Shown here in pieces: positions 1,618 to 16,004 of a stretch of 64,000 bases of DNA. Where the stretch lies: assembly GCA_963817725.1 (NCBI GenBank), contig CAWFPD010000013.1:255006-319005 (forward strand). Direction: 5' to 3'. The translations under genes and the position numbers were made by a program. Every line of letters starts with the position of its first letter. The stretch's first letter is position 1. The DNA is from an uncultured delta proteobacterium. GTDB lineage: Bacteria > Myxococcota_A > Polyangia > Polyangiales > Houyiibacteriaceae. The notes under the pieces were generated by a model, which did not search any database, was not told where the DNA came from, and saw nothing but the letters and a program-made list of their open reading frames with translations.

Positions 1618-2499
1618 GTGGGCCAAACTGATGGAGACCTTGGCACCGCGCTCGTCGGTGAGCTCGCACTCAGGCTGGCGAACCAAGTGTTCGAAGGATG
1701 TGCCGAGCGTGGCGTCGTGGCGATGCCCTTGAAGGGCGTGCTGCTCCTTGCAAGGTGGCCTGCTTTGCGGGGTCAGCGGGACCTCGTCGACATCGACCTC
1801 CTGGTACGCTCTTCGGACATCGAGACGGTGGCTCTGGCTTTGCGCACGCTCGGCTTCGAGCCGACCGTGCGTTCGAGCGCGGGAAGCACGTTTGTCAGCG
1901 ATGCATGGCCGCTCAGCATCGACGTGCACCTTCGTCTCTTTCCTCACGGCCTCTTTCGCATGTCTACGGACGGAGTTTTCTCGAGGGCAGAGCTCGACAC
2001 GTCGCTTTTTGCCGCACCCGTGGCGCGGATGTCGCATGAGGACGTCTTCGCACATCTGATCGGCCATTTCGTCAAGGGGCGTGGTACCTTTCGCGAGGAC
2101 ACGAGCCTCGACGACATTCGATGGCTGCTGAGGGAAGGCGTCTTTCAATTCGAAGATGCAGGCGCGTTAGGAGCTCATTTCCGAGCGTTGGGTCTTCAGC
2201 GTGCCGCGGGGTACGTGCTAGGTCACGAGTCGTTTCGAGACGATCCCATCGCGTGCGCAGCGGTTCGTTCACTGAAGCTCTCGCTATTGGACCGCATGAT
2301 CATCGCCGTCGCGCGTCTGGGCACGGACACGAATGGAGATTCGCCGCTCTGGTGGACACCACACCTGTTGGACCGGTCGCTTGTCGCTGGGTCGCGATCT
2401 CTTTTCGCTCACGCGGACGAAGCGAGGCGCCGCGTCCTGGCGCAGCTCGCCGCGCGCTCGGGATGGCCTACGAGGTCGCCGAATGAAGCGACACGATGA
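1618..2499 (+). CDS. Nucleotidyltransferase family protein (NTP_transf_5-like)
   Basis: PLKGVLL...RDLVDIDLLV (LKG...R..xDxD) and IDVHLRLF motifs, typical of the NTases found beside PqqD/lasso-type loci. Confidence 0.8.
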   Translation: MGQTDGDLGTALVGELALRLANQVFEGCAERGVVAMPLKGVLLLARWPALRGQRDLVDIDLLVRSSDIETVALALRTLGFEPTVRSSAGSTFVSDAWPLSIDVHLRLFPHGLFRMSTDGVFSRAELDTSLFAAPVARMSHEDVFAHLIGHFVKGRGTFREDTSLDDIRWLLREGVFQFEDAGALGAHFRALGLQRAAGYVLGHESFRDDPIACAAVRSLKLSLLDRMIIAVARLGTDTNGDSPLWWTPHLLDRSLVAGSRSLFAHADEARRRVLAQLAARSGWPTRSPNEATR

Positions 2500-3807
2500 C
2501 TAGGGGCACGCCACCCCGTCCTCGACGGCGTGCCATCGCACGTAGCTGAAGCACCCGCGGTCCTCCGCGGTTCGGGCGCTTGGACACCAATCGGTGAACT
2601 GGATTTCCCAAAGCTGCTCGTCGGCGTCGGTCGTATGGAGGCAACTGCGGTAGCCGACGATTCGCCTTGGCACCTCCGGACATGCAAACGCATCGCTCAA
2701 GAAGATCACGAATTCAGAGGGCGAAGCCGAAACGCATGGCTTGCGCACCCATTCGGTGAACGTGGGGACCTCCGAGCGTGGGGGGTCGACTCCGCACACT
2801 CCGTCCGCGGGAGCTTGGGTCTCCGCGCGACTATTATAGAGTGCTCGAGTGTCGCCGCGCGTGAGGCAAACACCATTGCTCGGGCAGTCCTCAGCGGTTT
2901 GCCCCGGCGCCTTGGTGAATTCCACGGTGTCACATTCGCAGCGGTGCGACGTAGCCCCCGTCCTCCTGCAGCTCGCGCCGGCCCCGCAAGGATCGGGGTC
3001 GCAAGGATCGGGCAGGACACAAATCCCGTCGCCACTTTCGTTCACCCAACCTTCGGGGCAATTGCATGTCACGCGGCTCATGCTCGCGTCGCAGGTTGCC
3101 GCGGCCACGCCGCATGCATCGGCGTCCACCGCGGTCCGCACGTACGCAAAGCTGCTCCCTGTGACGCTTCCCCACTCTGAGAAGACCACGTCATAGAAGA
3201 GGTTTTCGTTGGTGAGCCAGAGGCATAGGTCGGGGCCAACGATGCTTCCTCCGACGCAGTTTCCGTTGCAGGAGCTGCTGCCGCTGCCGCCTGAGAACAG
3301 CGCGGAGATCGGCTCGAAGTCGTCTGGAACTGTGGCGGCGGCGCACGTCGACAACGCCCACAACGTGCCCTCGGGCGACACCGAGCTGTTCGCTGCAAGC
3401 TCGTACGCGGAGTTGTAAAGCCCCTTCACGCGACCTCGCTTGAGACAGACGCCGGGGACGATGCAGTCGGGCGCCGCATCGAACGACGCGTACTCGAACG
3501 CGACGGTGCCCGAGGGGGCGCACGGGTCGGTGCCGCCAGTTCCCCCGGTTCCCGCAGAGCCGCCGGCTCCCGCGGAGCCCCCCGTTCCCAAAGAGCCCCC
3601 GATTCCCGCAGAGCCGCCCAGGCCGCCCGAGCCGCCCGAGCCGGCCGAACCGCCTGCGCCTCCCGAGCCGCCGCTGCCGCCCATACCTCCCGAGCCGGCC
3701 GAGCCGCCCGCGCCTCCCGAGCCGCCAGTGCCCTCGTTCCCGACCGAACTATAACATCCGCCGACGGCGGTCAGTAAAGCCAAGGCTACGTATCCACAGC
3801 GATTCAT
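2500..3807 (-). CDS. Cys-rich lipoprotein: Gly/Ser linker, duplicated unknown domain, two EGF-like modules
   Basis: Lipobox LTAVGGC, GGSAG linker, CNCPEGW...GICV and DPCDPDPCGAGASC...CEC EGF-like units between two homologous ~130-aa domains. Confidence 0.8.
   Translation of the reverse strand: MNRCGYVALALLTAVGGCYSSVGNEGTGGSGGAGGSAGSGGMGGSGGSGGAGGSAGSGGSGGLGGSAGIGGSLGTGGSAGAGGSAGTGGTGGTDPCAPSGTVAFEYASFDAAPDCIVPGVCLKRGRVKGLYNSAYELAANSSVSPEGTLWALSTCAAATVPDDFEPISALFSGGSGSSSCNGNCVGGSIVGPDLCLWLTNENLFYDVVFSEWGSVTGSSFAYVRTAVDADACGVAAATCDASMSRVTCNCPEGWVNESGDGICVLPDPCDPDPCGAGASCRRTGATSHRCECDTVEFTKAPGQTAEDCPSNGVCLTRGDTRALYNSRAETQAPADGVCGVDPPRSEVPTFTEWVRKPCVSASPSEFVIFLSDAFACPEVPRRIVGYRSCLHTTDADEQLWEIQFTDWCPSARTAEDRGCFSYVRWHAVEDGVACP
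3529..3732 (-). repeat. Low-complexity Gly/Ser/Thr coding repeat (GGSAGxGGS) linker
   Basis: Degenerate tandem repeats encoding GGSGGAGGSAGS...GTGGTGGT. Confidence 0.8.
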
Positions 3808-3907: not shown

Positions 3908-4684
3908 TCATACGCTCGGGACCAGCGTGGCGTACGAGCTCGGTGACTCGAGCGACACGATGAGCTTTCGATTCAGTGCTTTCGCGTGCTGATCGAGCTC
4001 TTCGACCGTAGGCCACACCAAGAAGCCACCCCATGTCGTGTAGTACATTCCGTTCGTCGCGGCTGCGGCGTTCGGCTCGAAGAGACTCAAGAGGATCGGG
4101 CCATGCGGCGCGACGCGGTCACACGCACGAAGCAACTCCAGCCGGTCGGCGCGCTGAAGCACGTGTCCGAAGCTACCCCAGCCCAACAGCACGGCATCGA
4201 ATCTCGATTCGTGCGTGAGCCGTAGCGGCGTGTTCTTTCCGCGAAGCGCCGTCGCAATGAGATCCTGGTAACTCGCTTGGTCGACGAGATCAGAGCCGAG
4301 GACGGACCGACAGAGCCGAAATGCCGATTGAGCGGGCTCGAAGGCATGCACGCGGTAGCCCGACTTTCGGAGCTCGGAAGCCTCACGCCCCGAACCGGCC
4401 GCCCCGACGAGGATGGATGCCGGAGCAGAGGGCAGGCGTCGCTCGAACCATTTCCGCTCCCATTCGTAGAGCCCGTCATGGTCGTTTTCCGGCTGAAAAG
4501 AGGCGTCGTATAGTTCGATTGAAAGCGCCTCCTTTTCGACGTCTCGCAGTGCCCAGCTCAAGATGGCTCCGGTCGAAACCTCGACCGCGCCCTCGATTCG
4601 ACGGAACACGTATTGAACTTTGCGACTCTGCAATGCCCAGCCGCGCAGCAAGCGATATCGTACGCTCGGCTCGCCGCCTGTCAT
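3908..4684 (-). CDS. Class I SAM-dependent methyltransferase
   Basis: ILVGAAGSGREA motif I, VHAFEP, FDAVLLGWGSFGHV; ATG 4684 overlaps kinase stop (ATGA). Confidence 0.75.
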   Translation of the reverse strand: MTGGEPSVRYRLLRGWALQSRKVQYVFRRIEGAVEVSTGAILSWALRDVEKEALSIELYDASFQPENDHDGLYEWERKWFERRLPSAPASILVGAAGSGREASELRKSGYRVHAFEPAQSAFRLCRSVLGSDLVDQASYQDLIATALRGKNTPLRLTHESRFDAVLLGWGSFGHVLQRADRLELLRACDRVAPHGPILLSLFEPNAAAATNGMYYTTWGGFLVWPTVEELDQHAKALNRKLIVSLESPSSYATLVPSV

Positions 4685-5502
4685 GTTCTCTCGATCAAAT
4701 CGATGAGCTCGTCCGGGTGGCGCCACGATGCGCGCCAAGTACGGTCTCTGCCGACCAGGGCGCCCAGGGATATCCTCGGCTCGAAGAACGAGGCTTCGAT
4801 CCAATGCTTCAAGCCGGCAGTCGGAAGGATGGGCGCCAGTGCCGTCCGCGTACCACGCTCGATGCTGACGAAACGCACGTCGTGCACAGAGCAGGCAACT
4901 CGCTGCAGGGCGCGACTGTGCACGGCATAGTAGGGGGGCGCAGCGTCTTGTCCCGGCTCCACTGCATCCTCATCATCGTCGAGGCCAACGAGATACTCGG
5001 GGCGCCGTGCACCCGGCTCTGGAGGGTCGAAACGAATCGCGCGTGGCCATCCCCAGAGCCGCTGGCCGTCCGTGACCACGAACTCATCGGAGAAATATTT
5101 CCAACCGCGCCGCACCGCCGCGAGGGCAAGCGAGCTCTTCCCCGCGCCAGACGGCCCGGAGAAGACGAAGGTTGCTCGATCCGAAACCAAGGCTGCGGCG
5201 TGAAAGACTGCAAATTCGCGTTTGTGCCGCGCGAGCGCCAGGCGGTAGAGCCACTGCTCGAAACCAGCGACCAAGTCTTCGACCTCGCCATCCGCCCACA
5301 AGATTTCGCCGTCCACCACGATTCGAGGTGACCCGTTGGCGATTACTTCGATGTCGCACCTGGCCTCCGGTTGGACAATCGGCGACTTCGCGGCGGACCA
5401 GTGACGTCGGAGGTAGCGACTCGTTTTCGCGCAGGAGCTTCGTACACCAACACGAAGGCCGGAAAGAAAGATTTCGTGCTGCTCTAGGTTGCCTCTTTCC
5501 AC
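4681..5502 (-). CDS. HPr kinase-like P-loop Ser/Thr kinase
   Basis: FHAAAL...FSGPSGAGKSSLA...YFSDE signature (H-A, Walker A, SDE). Confidence 0.8.
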   Translation of the reverse strand: MERGNLEQHEIFLSGLRVGVRSSCAKTSRYLRRHWSAAKSPIVQPEARCDIEVIANGSPRIVVDGEILWADGEVEDLVAGFEQWLYRLALARHKREFAVFHAAALVSDRATFVFSGPSGAGKSSLALAAVRRGWKYFSDEFVVTDGQRLWGWPRAIRFDPPEPGARRPEYLVGLDDDEDAVEPGQDAAPPYYAVHSRALQRVACSVHDVRFVSIERGTRTALAPILPTAGLKHWIEASFFEPRISLGALVGRDRTWRASWRHPDELIDLIERT

Positions 5503-5777
5503 GCGATGAGCTTCCGTTGCTCGAGCTGACCGAGGAATGCAATCACGTCACGAGCCACCGTTGCCCGCTCCGCCTCGACATGGCTCAGGATTTCGGCAGT
5601 GATGTCCTCGATTGACCGTTTGCCGTCGATCATCAACCAAACACCCGCTGCAATATCGTTCAACACGAGCAATTGCGGGGTGTTGCCATCGTAGATGACG
5701 ACTTCATCGGTGTCGGTGACCTCATGCGTGAGCGTATTCTTGCGTTGAGGCACGCGTCGATCGGACACATCAGGCAT
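5484..5777 (-). CDS. Stand-alone PqqD-family RiPP recognition element (RRE)
   Basis: EVVIYD...LNDIAAGVWLMIDGKRSIEDI...ARDVIAFLGQLEQRKLI matches the PqqD pattern; 97 aa from ATG 5777. Confidence 0.9.
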   Translation of the reverse strand: MPDVSDRRVPQRKNTLTHEVTDTDEVVIYDGNTPQLLVLNDIAAGVWLMIDGKRSIEDITAEILSHVEAERATVARDVIAFLGQLEQRKLIAWKEAT

Positions 5778-6912
5778 TGCAAGTCCTATCGAGCAATACC
5801 GATCGAGCTTGGCACTCCCAACAGGAGAGCTTCTCACCCCATCGTGCGCGGGCCGTCAGCAAGCTCTTCTTCGTCGAGGCGATTGGCTGTGTAGACGTTA
5901 GAATCGCTTCGAGGCTGGTCTCGTAGATCGATCCAAGCAGCAGGTGCCGGCTGAAGATGCACGGATACACCTTGCCGTCATAGCTCACCGCAGCCGAGCC
6001 GCCGAAGTCTCGCGATCGCCTGCTCTCGACACCGCCGTTTTGAAGGCCTGCTGGGCGCGCGTCGATTTGCGTGGATGTGGCGTCCCCTCGACCGACCTCG
6101 CGCATTTGGTCGAAGCCCACCGAGTCGCGAGCCAGGCCCAGCTCCAGCAAATATTCGTAGGTCTGCGATGCATCCTGTTGGTTCTGCGCCATCGAGATGA
6201 CGCCCACGCGCACCTTCAATCCATCCTCGACAGCACGGCGAATGGCTCGCGCGGTGCGTGCATGACTGCCTGGTGTCCGAGTGATGGCGTCATGGGTCTC
6301 GGGATCGTGCGAGTAGAAGGAAAACGCAAACGACGGCGCGAGCTCGCGCAAGCGCTCGTAGGTCCTTCCCCGAAGCGCGAGGCCATTCGTATAGATCTCG
6401 ACCTGCGGGATGCCAATCTCTTTCGCATGCTCCACGGCTCGGATGCAATGGGCGCTGATGAGGGGATCCCCGCCGGTGAGCTGTACCAGACCGAAGCCCA
6501 GCGCCTTCGCGTCGTTGAGCACCGTGCGGATCTCCGGCCACGCGAGTGCCTCGGTGCGAGCAGGCGTCGATTCGGCATAGCAATGCACACATTGCTCGTT
6601 GCACTTCGCCGTAAGCTCCACGAAAAGCTGTCTCCATCCAGAGCCACGCAACACGGTTTGTCGCGTGAGTGGTTGCAGCTTCTGCTCCTGGAGTTGACCT
6701 CGGAGCTGCCCCACCAAAGGCTCGAACCGTGCGAGCGAATCCCACACCGACGCGGACAGCTGGCCATTCAACGAATCGATCTCGGGCGTTCCTTCGATTC
6801 GGATCTGATCCCCGCTGCTCAGCTTGATGGCTTCGAGCAATCCTTCGCTCTGCCAGAGGATCCAGTCGTTGGGCAAGAAGTAGCCGGTCTTCTGCCGTTC
6901 CATTCGCTTCAT
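5770..6912 (-). CDS. Radical SAM enzyme with SPASM/twitch-like C-terminus, putative peptide maturase
   Basis: ELTAKCNEQCVHCY (CxxxCxxC), LTGGDP, YTNG, DGKVYPC...GSI...CWECQAR. Confidence 0.92.
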   Translation of the reverse strand: MKRMERQKTGYFLPNDWILWQSEGLLEAIKLSSGDQIRIEGTPEIDSLNGQLSASVWDSLARFEPLVGQLRGQLQEQKLQPLTRQTVLRGSGWRQLFVELTAKCNEQCVHCYAESTPARTEALAWPEIRTVLNDAKALGFGLVQLTGGDPLISAHCIRAVEHAKEIGIPQVEIYTNGLALRGRTYERLRELAPSFAFSFYSHDPETHDAITRTPGSHARTARAIRRAVEDGLKVRVGVISMAQNQQDASQTYEYLLELGLARDSVGFDQMREVGRGDATSTQIDARPAGLQNGGVESRRSRDFGGSAAVSYDGKVYPCIFSRHLLLGSIYETSLEAILTSTQPIASTKKSLLTARARWGEKLSCWECQARSVLLDRTCNA

Positions 6913-7118
6913 CCAGCGATGGGCATGCAGTTCAACGGGTTACAGCCGTTGGGATTGCATACCCCGGGCATACACGTCGACGGATTGCACGACGCCTGGG
7001 CGTGCGCCTTGTTCAGCGTGATCGTCGCGAGGATGGCAGGTGCCGTATATGCTGCGGCTTTGAGAAAATGGCGCCTCGCGCGATCGAGCTCGTTTGTGTC
7101 CCCCACGTCGTCCTTCAT
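6909..7118 (-). CDS. Putative RiPP precursor peptide (69 aa), twin-Arg leader + (CxPxx)5 core
   Basis: MKDDVGDTNELDRARRHFLKAAAYTAPAILATITLNKAHAQASCNPSTCMPGVCNPNGCNPLNCMPIAG; GAAGAG before ATG 7118; stop overlaps rSAM ATG (ATGA). Confidence 0.85.
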   Translation of the reverse strand: MKDDVGDTNELDRARRHFLKAAAYTAPAILATITLNKAHAQASCNPSTCMPGVCNPNGCNPLNCMPIAG

Positions 7119-7405: not shown

Positions 7406-7915
7406 TCAGAGACTTCGCTTCTTGCCGCGCAACCCTCGCCGGCTGCCCTTGGGTCGCTTCGCCTTACCGAAGGATTTGCCGCCACGACCGCCGCCGTGAT
7501 CATCTGCGTATGCGTCGTCGCGGGCATACTCTCCGCGCCCATAGTCTTGGCCGCCCAGGTCTTGCCGCTCGAGCTCCGCGCGCCCGAGGTCATCCGCATG
7601 ACGTGGGCCGTTGCCAGCAAAGCGTCCGGCTGATGGTTTGAAATCACGCCGCGGACGAGGCGGACGGGGTCGATCTTCTGCAATGTCCAAGCGCAGGGCG
7701 CGTCCACCGACTTCCCTGCCATGCAGCTGCTCGACAGCCTGTTTGGCCTGCTCCTCGGACGCGAATCGGACGAACGCAAAGCCTCTTGGGCGGCCCGACT
7801 CGCGGTCTTTTGGAATGTGAACGTCCACGACTTCCCCAACCTCTCCGAACAACTGCCGAAGGTCTTCGTCCGTCGTTGCAAAGTTGAGGTTCCCTACGAA
7901 TATCTTGCTTGAGAT
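7406..7915 (-). CDS. RRM (RNP-type) RNA-binding protein with Gly/Arg/Lys-rich tail; probable ATC start
   Basis: RNP2 IFVGNLNF and RNP1 RGFAFVRF; in-frame TAA at 7921-7919, SD GGAG 6 nt before ATC 7915. Confidence 0.88.
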   Translation of the reverse strand: MSSKIFVGNLNFATTDEDLRQLFGEVGEVVDVHIPKDRESGRPRGFAFVRFASEEQAKQAVEQLHGREVGGRALRLDIAEDRPRPPRPRRDFKPSAGRFAGNGPRHADDLGRAELERQDLGGQDYGRGEYARDDAYADDHGGGRGGKSFGKAKRPKGSRRGLRGKKRSL

Positions 7916-15224: not shown

Positions 15225-16004
15225 TCATCGACCGTGGAGCCAGTAGCGACCGTTGGCCGAGCCTACGTTGCATGGATAGTCGTAGAGGTCGCTCAGCCGA
15301 TCTTCGGTGAGGACCTCGTCGAGAGTGCCTGCGGCGAGGGGGCGTCCATTTTTGAGCAGCAGTGCGTGCGTGCCGTGCGCGGGAATTTCTTCGACGTGAT
15401 GGCTGACCAAAATGAGCGTCGGACCGTTGGGCTCGGCGCAAAGCAGGTCGACGTCGGCGATCAATCGCTCCCGCGCGCCCGGGTCCAGACCGGCGCACGG
15501 CTCGTCGAGGATCAACAGCTCGGGGCTCGTGATGAGCGCGCGTGCGATCATCACTCGTTGCTTTTCTCCCTGCGAGAGCACACCGTAGCGTTTGTCCCGG
15601 AACGCGTGTGCTCCGATGCTCTGCAGGGCGCCTTCGGCGCGGTCTAGGTCTGTATCGCTGAGCGCATGCCAGCCCCCAATGGTCGCGTGGATCCCTGTCG
15701 CTGCGACCTCCCGCGCCGTTTGCCGAGCCGGGAGCCAAGAAAAAAGCGAGGAGCTGACCCAGCCGATTCGTTCCTTGAGCGCCCGCATGTCGCATCTTCC
15801 GTAGGTCTGCCCGAGGACGGCCACCCGACCGCGACTGGGCCATTCGTAGCCCGCTACGATCGAAAGGAGCGAGGTTTTGCCTGATCCATTGGGTCCGAGG
15901 ACCGCCCAGTGCTGGCCGCGGAGCACCTTCCAACGAACATCGCGCAAGATGTCGGTCCCGTCGCGGGTGAAGCGTTCGACGTGCAGATCGAGGATTGGAC
16001 CCAC
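15225..16004 (-). CDS. ABC transporter ATP-binding protein (ModF-like, orphan)
   Basis: GPNGSGKT, LSQGEKQRV, ILDEP, SHH. Confidence 0.9.
   Translation of the reverse strand: MGPILDLHVERFTRDGTDILRDVRWKVLRGQHWAVLGPNGSGKTSLLSIVAGYEWPSRGRVAVLGQTYGRCDMRALKERIGWVSSSLFSWLPARQTAREVAATGIHATIGGWHALSDTDLDRAEGALQSIGAHAFRDKRYGVLSQGEKQRVMIARALITSPELLILDEPCAGLDPGARERLIADVDLLCAEPNGPTLILVSHHVEEIPAHGTHALLLKNGRPLAAGTLDEVLTEDRLSDLYDYPCNVGSANGRYWLHGR

Follow-up and report, generated by a model that had tools for sequence, protein, structure and literature searches.

A precursor gene at the head of a radical SAM cassette

We examined a stretch of 64,000 nucleotides (hereafter the window) of contig CAWFPD010000013.1, from the assembly GCA_963817725.1 of an uncultured delta proteobacterium, which contains a compact cassette for a putative peptide made by ribosomal synthesis and post-translational modification (RiPP). 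The precursor gene (P0001; 6909-7118, minus strand) comprises 69 codons and a stop in the list of open reading frames, and it occurs as a single copy in its genome, which is 4.75 Mb in size and 100% complete. Codons 1-42 correspond to positions 6993-7118, the span flagged in a preliminary description of this DNA, and the stop codon overlaps with the beginning of a gene encoding a 380-residue radical S-adenosylmethionine (SAM)/SPASM enzyme (5770-6912, minus strand; PF04055, 66.6 bits; PF13186, 30.7 bits). In this enzyme C104, C108, and C111 are invariant across 11 sequences, and no NCBIfam model scored over its cut-off, the best being TIGR04053 with 77.9 bits against a cut-off of 395. Two further genes lie on the same strand: one encodes a discrete protein of the PqqD/RiPP recognition element (RRE) type, with 97 residues counted from the ATG at 5777 (5484-5777; PF05402, 59 bits, cut-off 23.4), and the other encodes an HprK-related P-loop protein of 273 residues (4681-5502; TIGR04352, 44 bits at E 1.3e-11, cut-off 200). 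Judging from their translations, the cassette enzymes should act in the cytoplasm, since none of them starts with a hydrophobic stretch.

The precursor leader is laid out like a signal peptide of the twin-arginine translocation (Tat) type. Residues 14-20 (7059-7079, minus strand, as for all precursor features) read ARRHFLK, in which the Arg pair is invariant in three precursor alignments and the first position is Ala rather than the Ser/Thr of the consensus S/T-R-R-x-F-L-K. An uncharged h-region follows (residues 21-35, 7014-7058), with residues 21-36 forming a 16-residue stretch free of D, E, K, and R, and within the h-region lies YTAPAIL (residues 24-30, 7029-7049), an RRE-type motif of the form [Y/W]xxPx[I/V]. 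The c-region, N-K-A-H-A (residues 36-40, 6999-7013), ends in an AxA, with Ala40 followed by a putative site for signal peptidase I. Gln41 directly follows AHA and opens the core (residues 41-69, 6912-6998), which consists of Gln-Ala-Ser and then five Cys-x-Pro-x-x units that run from Cys44, the first Cys, to the C-terminus, so that each core Cys is followed by x-Pro with a period of five (6912-6989). The succession of ARRHFLK, a hydrophobic stretch, and AHA before Gln41 that the preliminary description had given is borne out by the translation. Its placement of YTAPAIL within the h-region also stands, and only its wording of the motif as YxxPxL needs correction, as the residues read YxxPxI with Leu one residue later. 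YTAPAI (residues 24-29) fits the published pattern [Y/W]xxPx[L/V/I/F/A], which discrete lasso and linear polyphosphorylated peptide (LPP) RREs are described as reading in the consulted text of PMC13381572.

We also searched the genome for the composite of RRxF[LI][KR], at least 13 uncharged residues, and AxA, using all stop-to-stop frames of at least 50 residues. Only 3 of 54,803 frames matched, namely the precursor and two N-terminal signal-like stretches that have 429 and 173 residues after the RR. Given that so few frames carry it, and that the other two are also N-terminal signal-like stretches, the composite found in the leader is not a product of chance.

Conservation of leader and core

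A word-based search recovered 38 precursor homologues of 63-94% identity, and in the 39-row alignment of close sequences R15, R16, F18, Y24, A26, P27, A28, A38, A40, and Q41 are invariant. The Cys and Pro columns of the core are conserved in the precursor alignments, and the residues between them are variable. When close and mid-distance precursors are taken together (47 distinct sequences, including eight more distant ones of 32-56% identity), both RR-x-[FL]-[LI] and [YW]xxPx[LIVFA] are found in 47/47, AxA precedes the first Cys in 44/47, and the uncharged stretch is 12-28 residues long.

A profile search against 1.84 billion representatives of 50%-identity clusters returned 287 representatives at E≤0.001 and 114 at E≤1e-10. 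We trimmed the best 150 matches to 142 small representatives by removing one repeat protein of low complexity and seven proteins that exceed 260 residues. RR is kept in 139 of these, the three exceptions being one sequence with RSR, one with RAR, and one that is cut at its N-terminus. The motif [YWF]xxPx[LIVFAM] is present in 137 of the 142, its aromatic residue lies 9 positions after the first Arg in 128 of 134, and the 15 residues around YxxP carry no charge in 110 of 137. The two members in which RR is replaced by R-S-R or R-A-R (P0116 and P0161) keep Tyr-x-x-Pro, and the hydrophobic stretch of one of them also contains charged residues; this member may have lost export.

We aligned 136 representatives by anchoring them on the aromatic residue. 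Both RR columns hold Arg in 133 sequences and Lys in none, while the flanking basic columns hold Lys in 54 and Arg in 53 (position -7 from Tyr) and Lys in 64 and Arg in 46 (position -4). Selection acts on arginine itself and not on charge, because Lys is absent from the RR columns while the basic columns on either side accept it. Such arginine-specific selection matches the prediction of a Tat motif, in which a change of RR to KK blocks export.

The junction between leader and core is kept by the majority of the family only. Of 137 representatives, 100 have AxA ahead of the first Cys; small-x-[AGS]-Q takes its place in 12, the first Cys directly follows the hydrophobic stretch in 17, and another type of junction is found in 8. 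As 37 members thus have no AxA, 17 of which belong to the Cys-direct subgroup, the AHA/Gln site and the N-terminal Gln that the preliminary description proposed are not family-wide features. In the Cys-direct subgroup (P0043, P0046, P0053, P0058, P0063, and others; loci L010-L012) the junction reads polar residue, A/G, G/A, Cys, and the AxA-Gln junction is absent, so processing may differ there.

These junctions bear on a different view of the leader, namely that it is an export signal for the general secretory (Sec) pathway or a retained membrane anchor, with a lipoprotein-type signal in the Cys-direct subgroup; passage through SecY would then require a small modification. RiPPs with Sec signals are known from the bufferins (PMC11626156, as consulted in part) and RiPPs with lipoprotein signals have been described as well (PMC13056109, likewise), and the 17 Cys-direct members of the 137 do end their hydrophobic stretch in [A/G/S]-Cys. 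The Arg pair fits this view poorly, as Sec signals need positive charge and not Arg pairs, and Lys replaces neither Arg in the 136 sequences. The same is true of the 40-residue length of the signal, its acidic n-region of 14 residues, and the basic K37 in its c-region, since a long signal, an acidic n-region, and a basic residue in the c-region are Tat-like traits. Furthermore, polar residues (Q, E, N) predominate before the Cys of the subgroup, whereas a lipobox has Leu before its Cys, and we set aside the lipobox reading of the [A/G]-Cys subgroup on this ground. We regard a Sec signal or membrane anchor as very unlikely.

Related cassettes in a second phylum

Scanning species-representative genomes with the radical SAM alignment, we found the family in metagenome-assembled genomes (MAGs) labelled Polyangiales, Sandaracinaceae, and Kofleriaceae, and also in MAGs labelled Zetaproteobacteria, Mariprofundaceae, and Ghiorsea; the family spans Myxococcota and Zetaproteobacteria-labelled MAGs. 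Of the 80 loci kept, we examined the 34 with tblastn E-values of at most about 1e-40. The other 46 match more weakly, with E-values from about 1e-24 to 1e-28, and come mainly from Acidobacteriota MAGs; we took them to be other radical SAM families. A total of 35 precursor genes were present in 31 of the 34 loci, and all 35 precursors have RR and aromatic-x-x-Pro at the fixed spacing. Conservation of RR among homologues, on which the preliminary description had relied, therefore holds in every collection (47/47, 139/142, and 35/35 beside homologous radical SAM genes).

At the loci with Zetaproteobacteria, Mariprofundaceae, or Ghiorsea labels, an unrelated sequence of 40-110 residues, rich in Cys and Lys, makes up the mature part, and the hydrophobic stretch of the leader still ends in AxA or small-x-small. 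A script counted AxA in 27 of the 35 locus precursors, three of which (L069, L074, and L078) have it inside the core, leaving about 24 of 35 with a proper site. Given that RR, h-region, and AxA are all kept while the cargo is exchanged, the leader behaves like an export signal.

Tandem precursor pairs are frequent in L056-L079, the loci from MAGs with Zetaproteobacteria, Mariprofundaceae, and Ghiorsea labels, as in the Zetaproteobacteria-type loci L064, L066, and L068; L057, labelled Deltaproteobacteria, has tandem precursors with short Cys-x-Pro cores. An MFS_1_like transporter gene and several unnamed conserved genes are also found in the neighbourhood of L056-L079.

The size of these mature parts, which are those of proteins and not of short peptides, favours an alternative that concerns the chemistry alone and is compatible with Tat export. 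According to this alternative the product is not a crosslinked macrocycle, and the radical SAM/SPASM enzyme treats Cys-x-Pro in the manner of an anaerobic sulfatase maturase, or makes some other local change, acting on the signal-bearing pre-peptide before export; the product would be small and periplasmic, a peptide or protein that might, for instance, bind metal. Anaerobic sulfatase-maturating radical SAM/SPASM enzymes act on Cys-x-Pro-x-Arg, and the x-Pro that follows every core Cys is in line with such an activity. However, no anaerobic-sulfatase-maturase model is among the best 25 of the 55 NCBIfam families matched, and a discrete RRE together with a conserved leader are traits of RiPPs. 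We consider a purely local change quite unlikely.

The recognition element and its docking motif

Counted from the cut after Ala40, the motif residues of the precursor are Tyr-17, Pro-14, and Ile-12, which we take to be lasso numbering. The LPP leader is described as having Tyr-16 and Pro-13 (PMC13381572, in the text consulted). On the side of the protein partner, we compared a profile of 12 PqqD sequences with solved structures, and the matches ranked in the order TbiB1 (9e-11), LppB (9x8z_B, 6e-8), a PqqC/D fusion, TfuB1 (3.5e-7), and PqqD. By this ranking the PqqD protein of the cassette is closest to the recognition elements of lasso and LPP-type systems. Its N40 and D77 are invariant in 12/12 homologues and align with N33 and D70 of LppB, in an alignment whose chain offset of 18 was verified against the LppB residues named in the consulted text of PMC13381572. 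In the crystal structure reported there, D70 of LppB bonds the hydroxyl of the leader Tyr and N33 fixes the kink at the Pro. These profile matches and the two kept residues give independent support to the RRE docking put forward in the preliminary description. The RRE Asp is also kept with the single Trp-type leader for which we have the PqqD protein in hand (L014/L043), which is one case only.

We further predicted the complex of the PqqD protein with leader residues 1-46, which scored 0.41 against 0.19 for the best of three controls, with no interface given. Among solved complexes, 58 of 80 reach our mark for such predictions, as do 2 of 110 mismatched pairs, and scores of 0.60 or less that pass it come from only 7 of the 80 solved complexes and from both of the passing mismatches. 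Agreement of contacts between runs was at least 93% and the predicted local distance difference test (pLDDT) value of the partner was at least 62, and the pass may reflect memory, since similar complexes have been solved. Of the checks that had been suggested for docking, this one thus supports it weakly.

Gene content of the cassettes and export machinery

Two comparisons of gene neighbourhoods were made. First, we compared the window with seven loci from distinct lineages, using frames within about 8-10 kb and Pfam searches on 20 flanking genes; only the precursor, the radical SAM enzyme, the PqqD protein, and the HprK-like protein recur. Second, we compared 26 loci with 8 kb of flank on each side by all-against-all searches of their frames and Pfam searches on 10 cluster representatives, which placed the radical SAM gene in 26/26, the HprK-like gene in 26/26, the PqqD gene in 25/26, and a gene of the NTP_transf_5 family in 18/26. 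No peptidase or ABC (ATP-binding cassette) cluster is common to at least five of the 26 loci, a statement confined to clusters of that breadth, as only these were named and a different, unrelated protease at each locus would escape. The eight-lineage comparison likewise has no conserved protease or exporter cluster. The preliminary description had noted that no peptidase or ABC exporter occurs at the locus, which holds for the operon in Pfam and NCBIfam scans, and the dedicated protease or exporter that might have emerged beside homologous clusters is not conserved at the 26 cassettes. The nearest and only ABC component of the window is a stand-alone ATPase (15225-16004, minus strand; PF00005, 105 bits), which lies about 8 kb away behind unrelated genes, has no adjacent membrane partner, and was not seen next to the cassettes in the other lineages of the comparison.

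For the housekeeping machinery, TatC is encoded in the genome of the precursor (210 bits) and in 10/10 other cassette-bearing genomes tested. The genome also has two bacterial signal peptidase I genes, and a search of it for archaeal-type signal peptidase I (TIGR02228, the type of the LPP-like leader peptidase) gave 0 matches.

We also ran curated Tat models at E≤10 on 13 diverse precursors. Besides keratin and zinc-finger Cys-repeat models, Tat-signal models are the only curated families that match the precursors at all; the match to Keratin_B2_2, seen in 5 of the 13, is an artefact of the Cys repeats. The Tat matches all stayed below their thresholds, and we rejected them as positive calls.

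A proposed dual-function leader

Taking these lines of evidence together, we lean, with somewhat more conviction than doubt, towards a bifunctional leader, that is, a Tat-type signal with an embedded RRE motif of the lasso/LPP type. In the cytoplasm the PqqD/RRE protein would hold the [Y/W]xxPx[I/V] segment (Tyr24, Pro27, and Ile29), as in lasso and LPP leaders, and would present the Cys-x-Pro core to the radical SAM/SPASM enzyme and probably also to the HprK-like and nucleotidyltransferase proteins. The same 40 residues would serve as the Tat-type signal, in which an acidic n-region and RR-x-[F/L]-L-[K/R] precede the uncharged h-region, and a basic c-region closes with AxA. Once modified, the peptide would leave through the housekeeping Tat translocase and a housekeeping signal peptidase I would cut after Ala40, and with these two activities at hand the cassette would need no protease or pump of its own. 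Leader-RRE binding, the order of events, the Tat route, the cleavage site, the masking of the signal by the RRE, and the chemistry at the cysteines are steps that we infer. With regard to the interpretation in the preliminary description, the kept RR, the lack of a dedicated protease or exporter, and the kinship of the RRE speak for it and the limited reach of AxA speaks against it, so that it is supported in part.

Several observations weigh against a Tat-exported, RRE-bound leader. The curated Tat models score below their cut-offs (TIGR02811, 16.6 bits against 48.45, in 6/13 members; TIGR01409, 13.4 against 16.7, in 2/13; PF10518, 13.3 against 22.7, in 1/13). TatC is also present in 11 of 14 control genomes, and its presence in cassette-bearing genomes is for this reason a failed refutation and not strong support; moreover, tblastn with the TatC of the same genome detected no tatC in the window or in 12 cassette loci. 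The spacing of 9 between RR and Tyr is nearly fixed (128/134), which suggests that RR may belong to one contiguous epitope recognized by the enzymes, and two members keep YxxP with RSR or RAR in place of RR. AxA is missing in 37/137 representatives, and the complex prediction supports docking only weakly. To our knowledge, a cargo of 29 residues is far below the sizes of natural Tat cargo. A cassette without a protease or pump also fits products that are retained in the cell, and MFS_1_like transporter genes stand near the cassette in 9 of the 26 loci, all within the Zetaproteobacteria-labelled clade.

Four of these points, namely the fixed spacing, the sub-threshold Tat models, the absence of Tat genes from the cassette, and the two members that keep YxxP without RR, are what one would expect if the leader were only a cytoplasmic recognition sequence. 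In that case the segment from RR to YxxP would form a single epitope for the RRE, the N-terminal domain of the radical SAM enzyme, or the HprK-like protein; its Tat-like appearance would be a by-product of the need for a basic patch ahead of a hydrophobic strand, and the product would be intracellular or trimmed by an unlinked protease. Recognition alone, however, leaves unexplained why the hydrophobic stretch runs into AxA or small-x-small also in members with an unrelated core, why the stretch is uncharged (110/137 without charge in the 15 residues around YxxP), and why Lys is excluded from RR while it is accepted at both neighbouring basic positions. In addition, the LPP leader consensus binds a related RRE without an RR motif, as described in the consulted text of PMC13381572. 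On these grounds we consider a purely cytoplasmic role unlikely.

The dual-function leader would also allow a more specific and more doubtful possibility. TorD, DmsD, and NapD are cytoplasmic chaperones that bind the Tat signals of cargo matured before export, and the PqqD/RRE protein could act as a private proofreading chaperone of this kind, clamping the Tyr-x-x-Pro strand and hiding the signal from TatBC until the radical SAM and kinase steps are done, after which Tat would carry a modified peptide of about 3 kDa. Compared with TorD, DmsD, and NapD, the cargo would be such a peptide, and its binder would belong to the PqqD-family RREs, which have no kinship with these chaperones. If this tentative idea is true, a single interaction would serve both as RiPP leader recognition and as Tat quality control.

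Comparison with known systems

The closest parallels to the cassette are found in LPP and in paeninodin-type lasso tailoring, with which it shares the [Y/W]xxPx[L/V/I/F/A] leader motif and the Asn/Asp pair of the RRE (as described in the consulted text of PMC13381572), as well as a module of RRE, kinase, and transferase. Leader removal in LPP is assigned to an enzyme of the signal peptidase I type (same source), and the same is putatively the case here. Unlike LPP, the genome has no SipW-like LppS (0 matches) and the 26 loci have no conserved MsbA-like transporter; unlike lasso systems, the operon genes include no macrolactam synthetase (C) or B2 protease in Pfam and NCBIfam scans. A radical SAM/SPASM enzyme is added relative to both LPP and paeninodin, and the leader carries RR and the full layout of a signal peptide. 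The paeninodin kinase phosphorylates a C-terminal Ser (PMC8498205, as consulted in part), whereas the present core has no C-terminal Ser. The hosts differ as well, with LPP and paeninodin found in Bacillota and the present family in Myxococcota and Zetaproteobacteria-labelled MAGs.

A second group of relatives in terms of logic are the RiPPs that carry signal peptides, namely the bufferins and oxazolins, which use Sec and signal peptidase I (PMC11626156 and PMC12452194), and the DAG-RiPPs, which use a lipoprotein signal (PMC13056109). In the texts consulted these systems have Cys-rich precursors, as here, and combine modification in the cytoplasm with export and cleavage by general machinery and without a dedicated protease or pump, as we propose for the present family. 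They differ in that the bufferin-type systems are described as having Sec signals and MNIO enzymes with DUF2063-type partners, whereas here a Tat-type signal contains an RRE motif and a Pfam scan of the operon genes found none of the MNIO or DUF2063-type families. The signal peptide of BufA1 is reported to be dispensable for modification (PMC11626156), and the words 'Tat' and 'twin' are absent from the main texts of PMC11626156, PMC12452194, and PMC13056109. The family is thus a member of neither the Sec- and lipoprotein-signal RiPPs nor the LPP/paeninodin group.

A radical SAM/SPASM enzyme beside a Cys-rich substrate is also a feature of sactipeptide, ranthipeptide, CXXX-repeat, and amine dehydrogenase small-subunit systems. 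Look-alikes by Atlas features are the targets of CXXX-repeat radical SAM enzymes (0.92) and the light chain of methylamine dehydrogenase (0.90), which we treat as leads only. In the literature searched (open-access PMC and bioRxiv texts, without supplements) we found no natural Tat-signal RiPP leader and no leader that combines a Tat-like signal with RRE docking.

RiPP pathways normally carry their own leader protease and pump. A general Sec route for RiPPs was shown recently with the bufferins, and the consulted text of the same study points out that SecY would handle bulky or macrocyclic peptides poorly (PMC11626156). A Tat-type leader would be a logical route for peptides that are modified or folded in the cytoplasm, and the present family would be a compact case, with about 40 residues carrying both a docking motif and an export signal. 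The family is large, as the 287 cluster representatives at E≤0.001 attest, and it bears on the minimum size of natural Tat cargo, on whether RREs can gate export, and on the finding of exported RiPPs that are missed by genome-mining rules based on proteases or transporters.

Distribution and other genes of the locus

A profile search of 401 genomes of the phylum recovered full-length precursors in 13 genomes. Within the genus, 6 of 17 other genomes have the cassette and the 11 that do not are 94-100% complete, so the distribution is patchy and the cassette behaves like an accessory trait.

Frames of 509-548 residues likewise match the leader profile at their N-termini (L016:1420-2946, L019:163-1806, L023, and L024, in genomes G288, G268, G088, and G278), and a frame of 985 residues in L018 (G368) matches it internally. 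These long matches have a signal-like start with RR, a hydrophobic stretch containing Tyr-x-x-x-Pro, which exceeds YxxP by one residue, and a junction, A-x-A-Q-A-S-C, that resembles the one in the precursor; the two that were scanned, L016 and L019, had no match to a Pfam family.

Next to the HprK-like gene of the window lies a gene for a weakly methyltransferase-like protein of 298 residues (3908-4804, minus strand; NF041820, E 6e-6, below its cut-off), which is found in 3 of 8 loci compared (the window, G155, and G041). Beyond it are a gene for a Cys-rich lipoprotein-like protein (2500-3807, minus strand) and, convergent with the operon, one for a nucleotidyltransferase of the NTP_transf_5 family (1618-2499, plus strand; PF14907, 66.9 bits), a family that is also present in L040 and L041. 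Directly upstream of the precursor is a gene for an RNA-binding protein with an RRM domain (7406-7852, minus strand), which is kept in four loci of the same genus (L032-L035).

Some neighbours occur at single loci, among them a Wzz-type kinase, oxidoreductases, and, in L038, a TonB receptor, HTTM, and imelysin. In the last case (L038:1695-6527, G041) the genes for imelysin (Peptidase_M75), HTTM, and the TonB-dependent receptor lie directly upstream of the radical SAM gene on the same strand, and the precursor gene is positioned after the methyltransferase-like gene and not in front.

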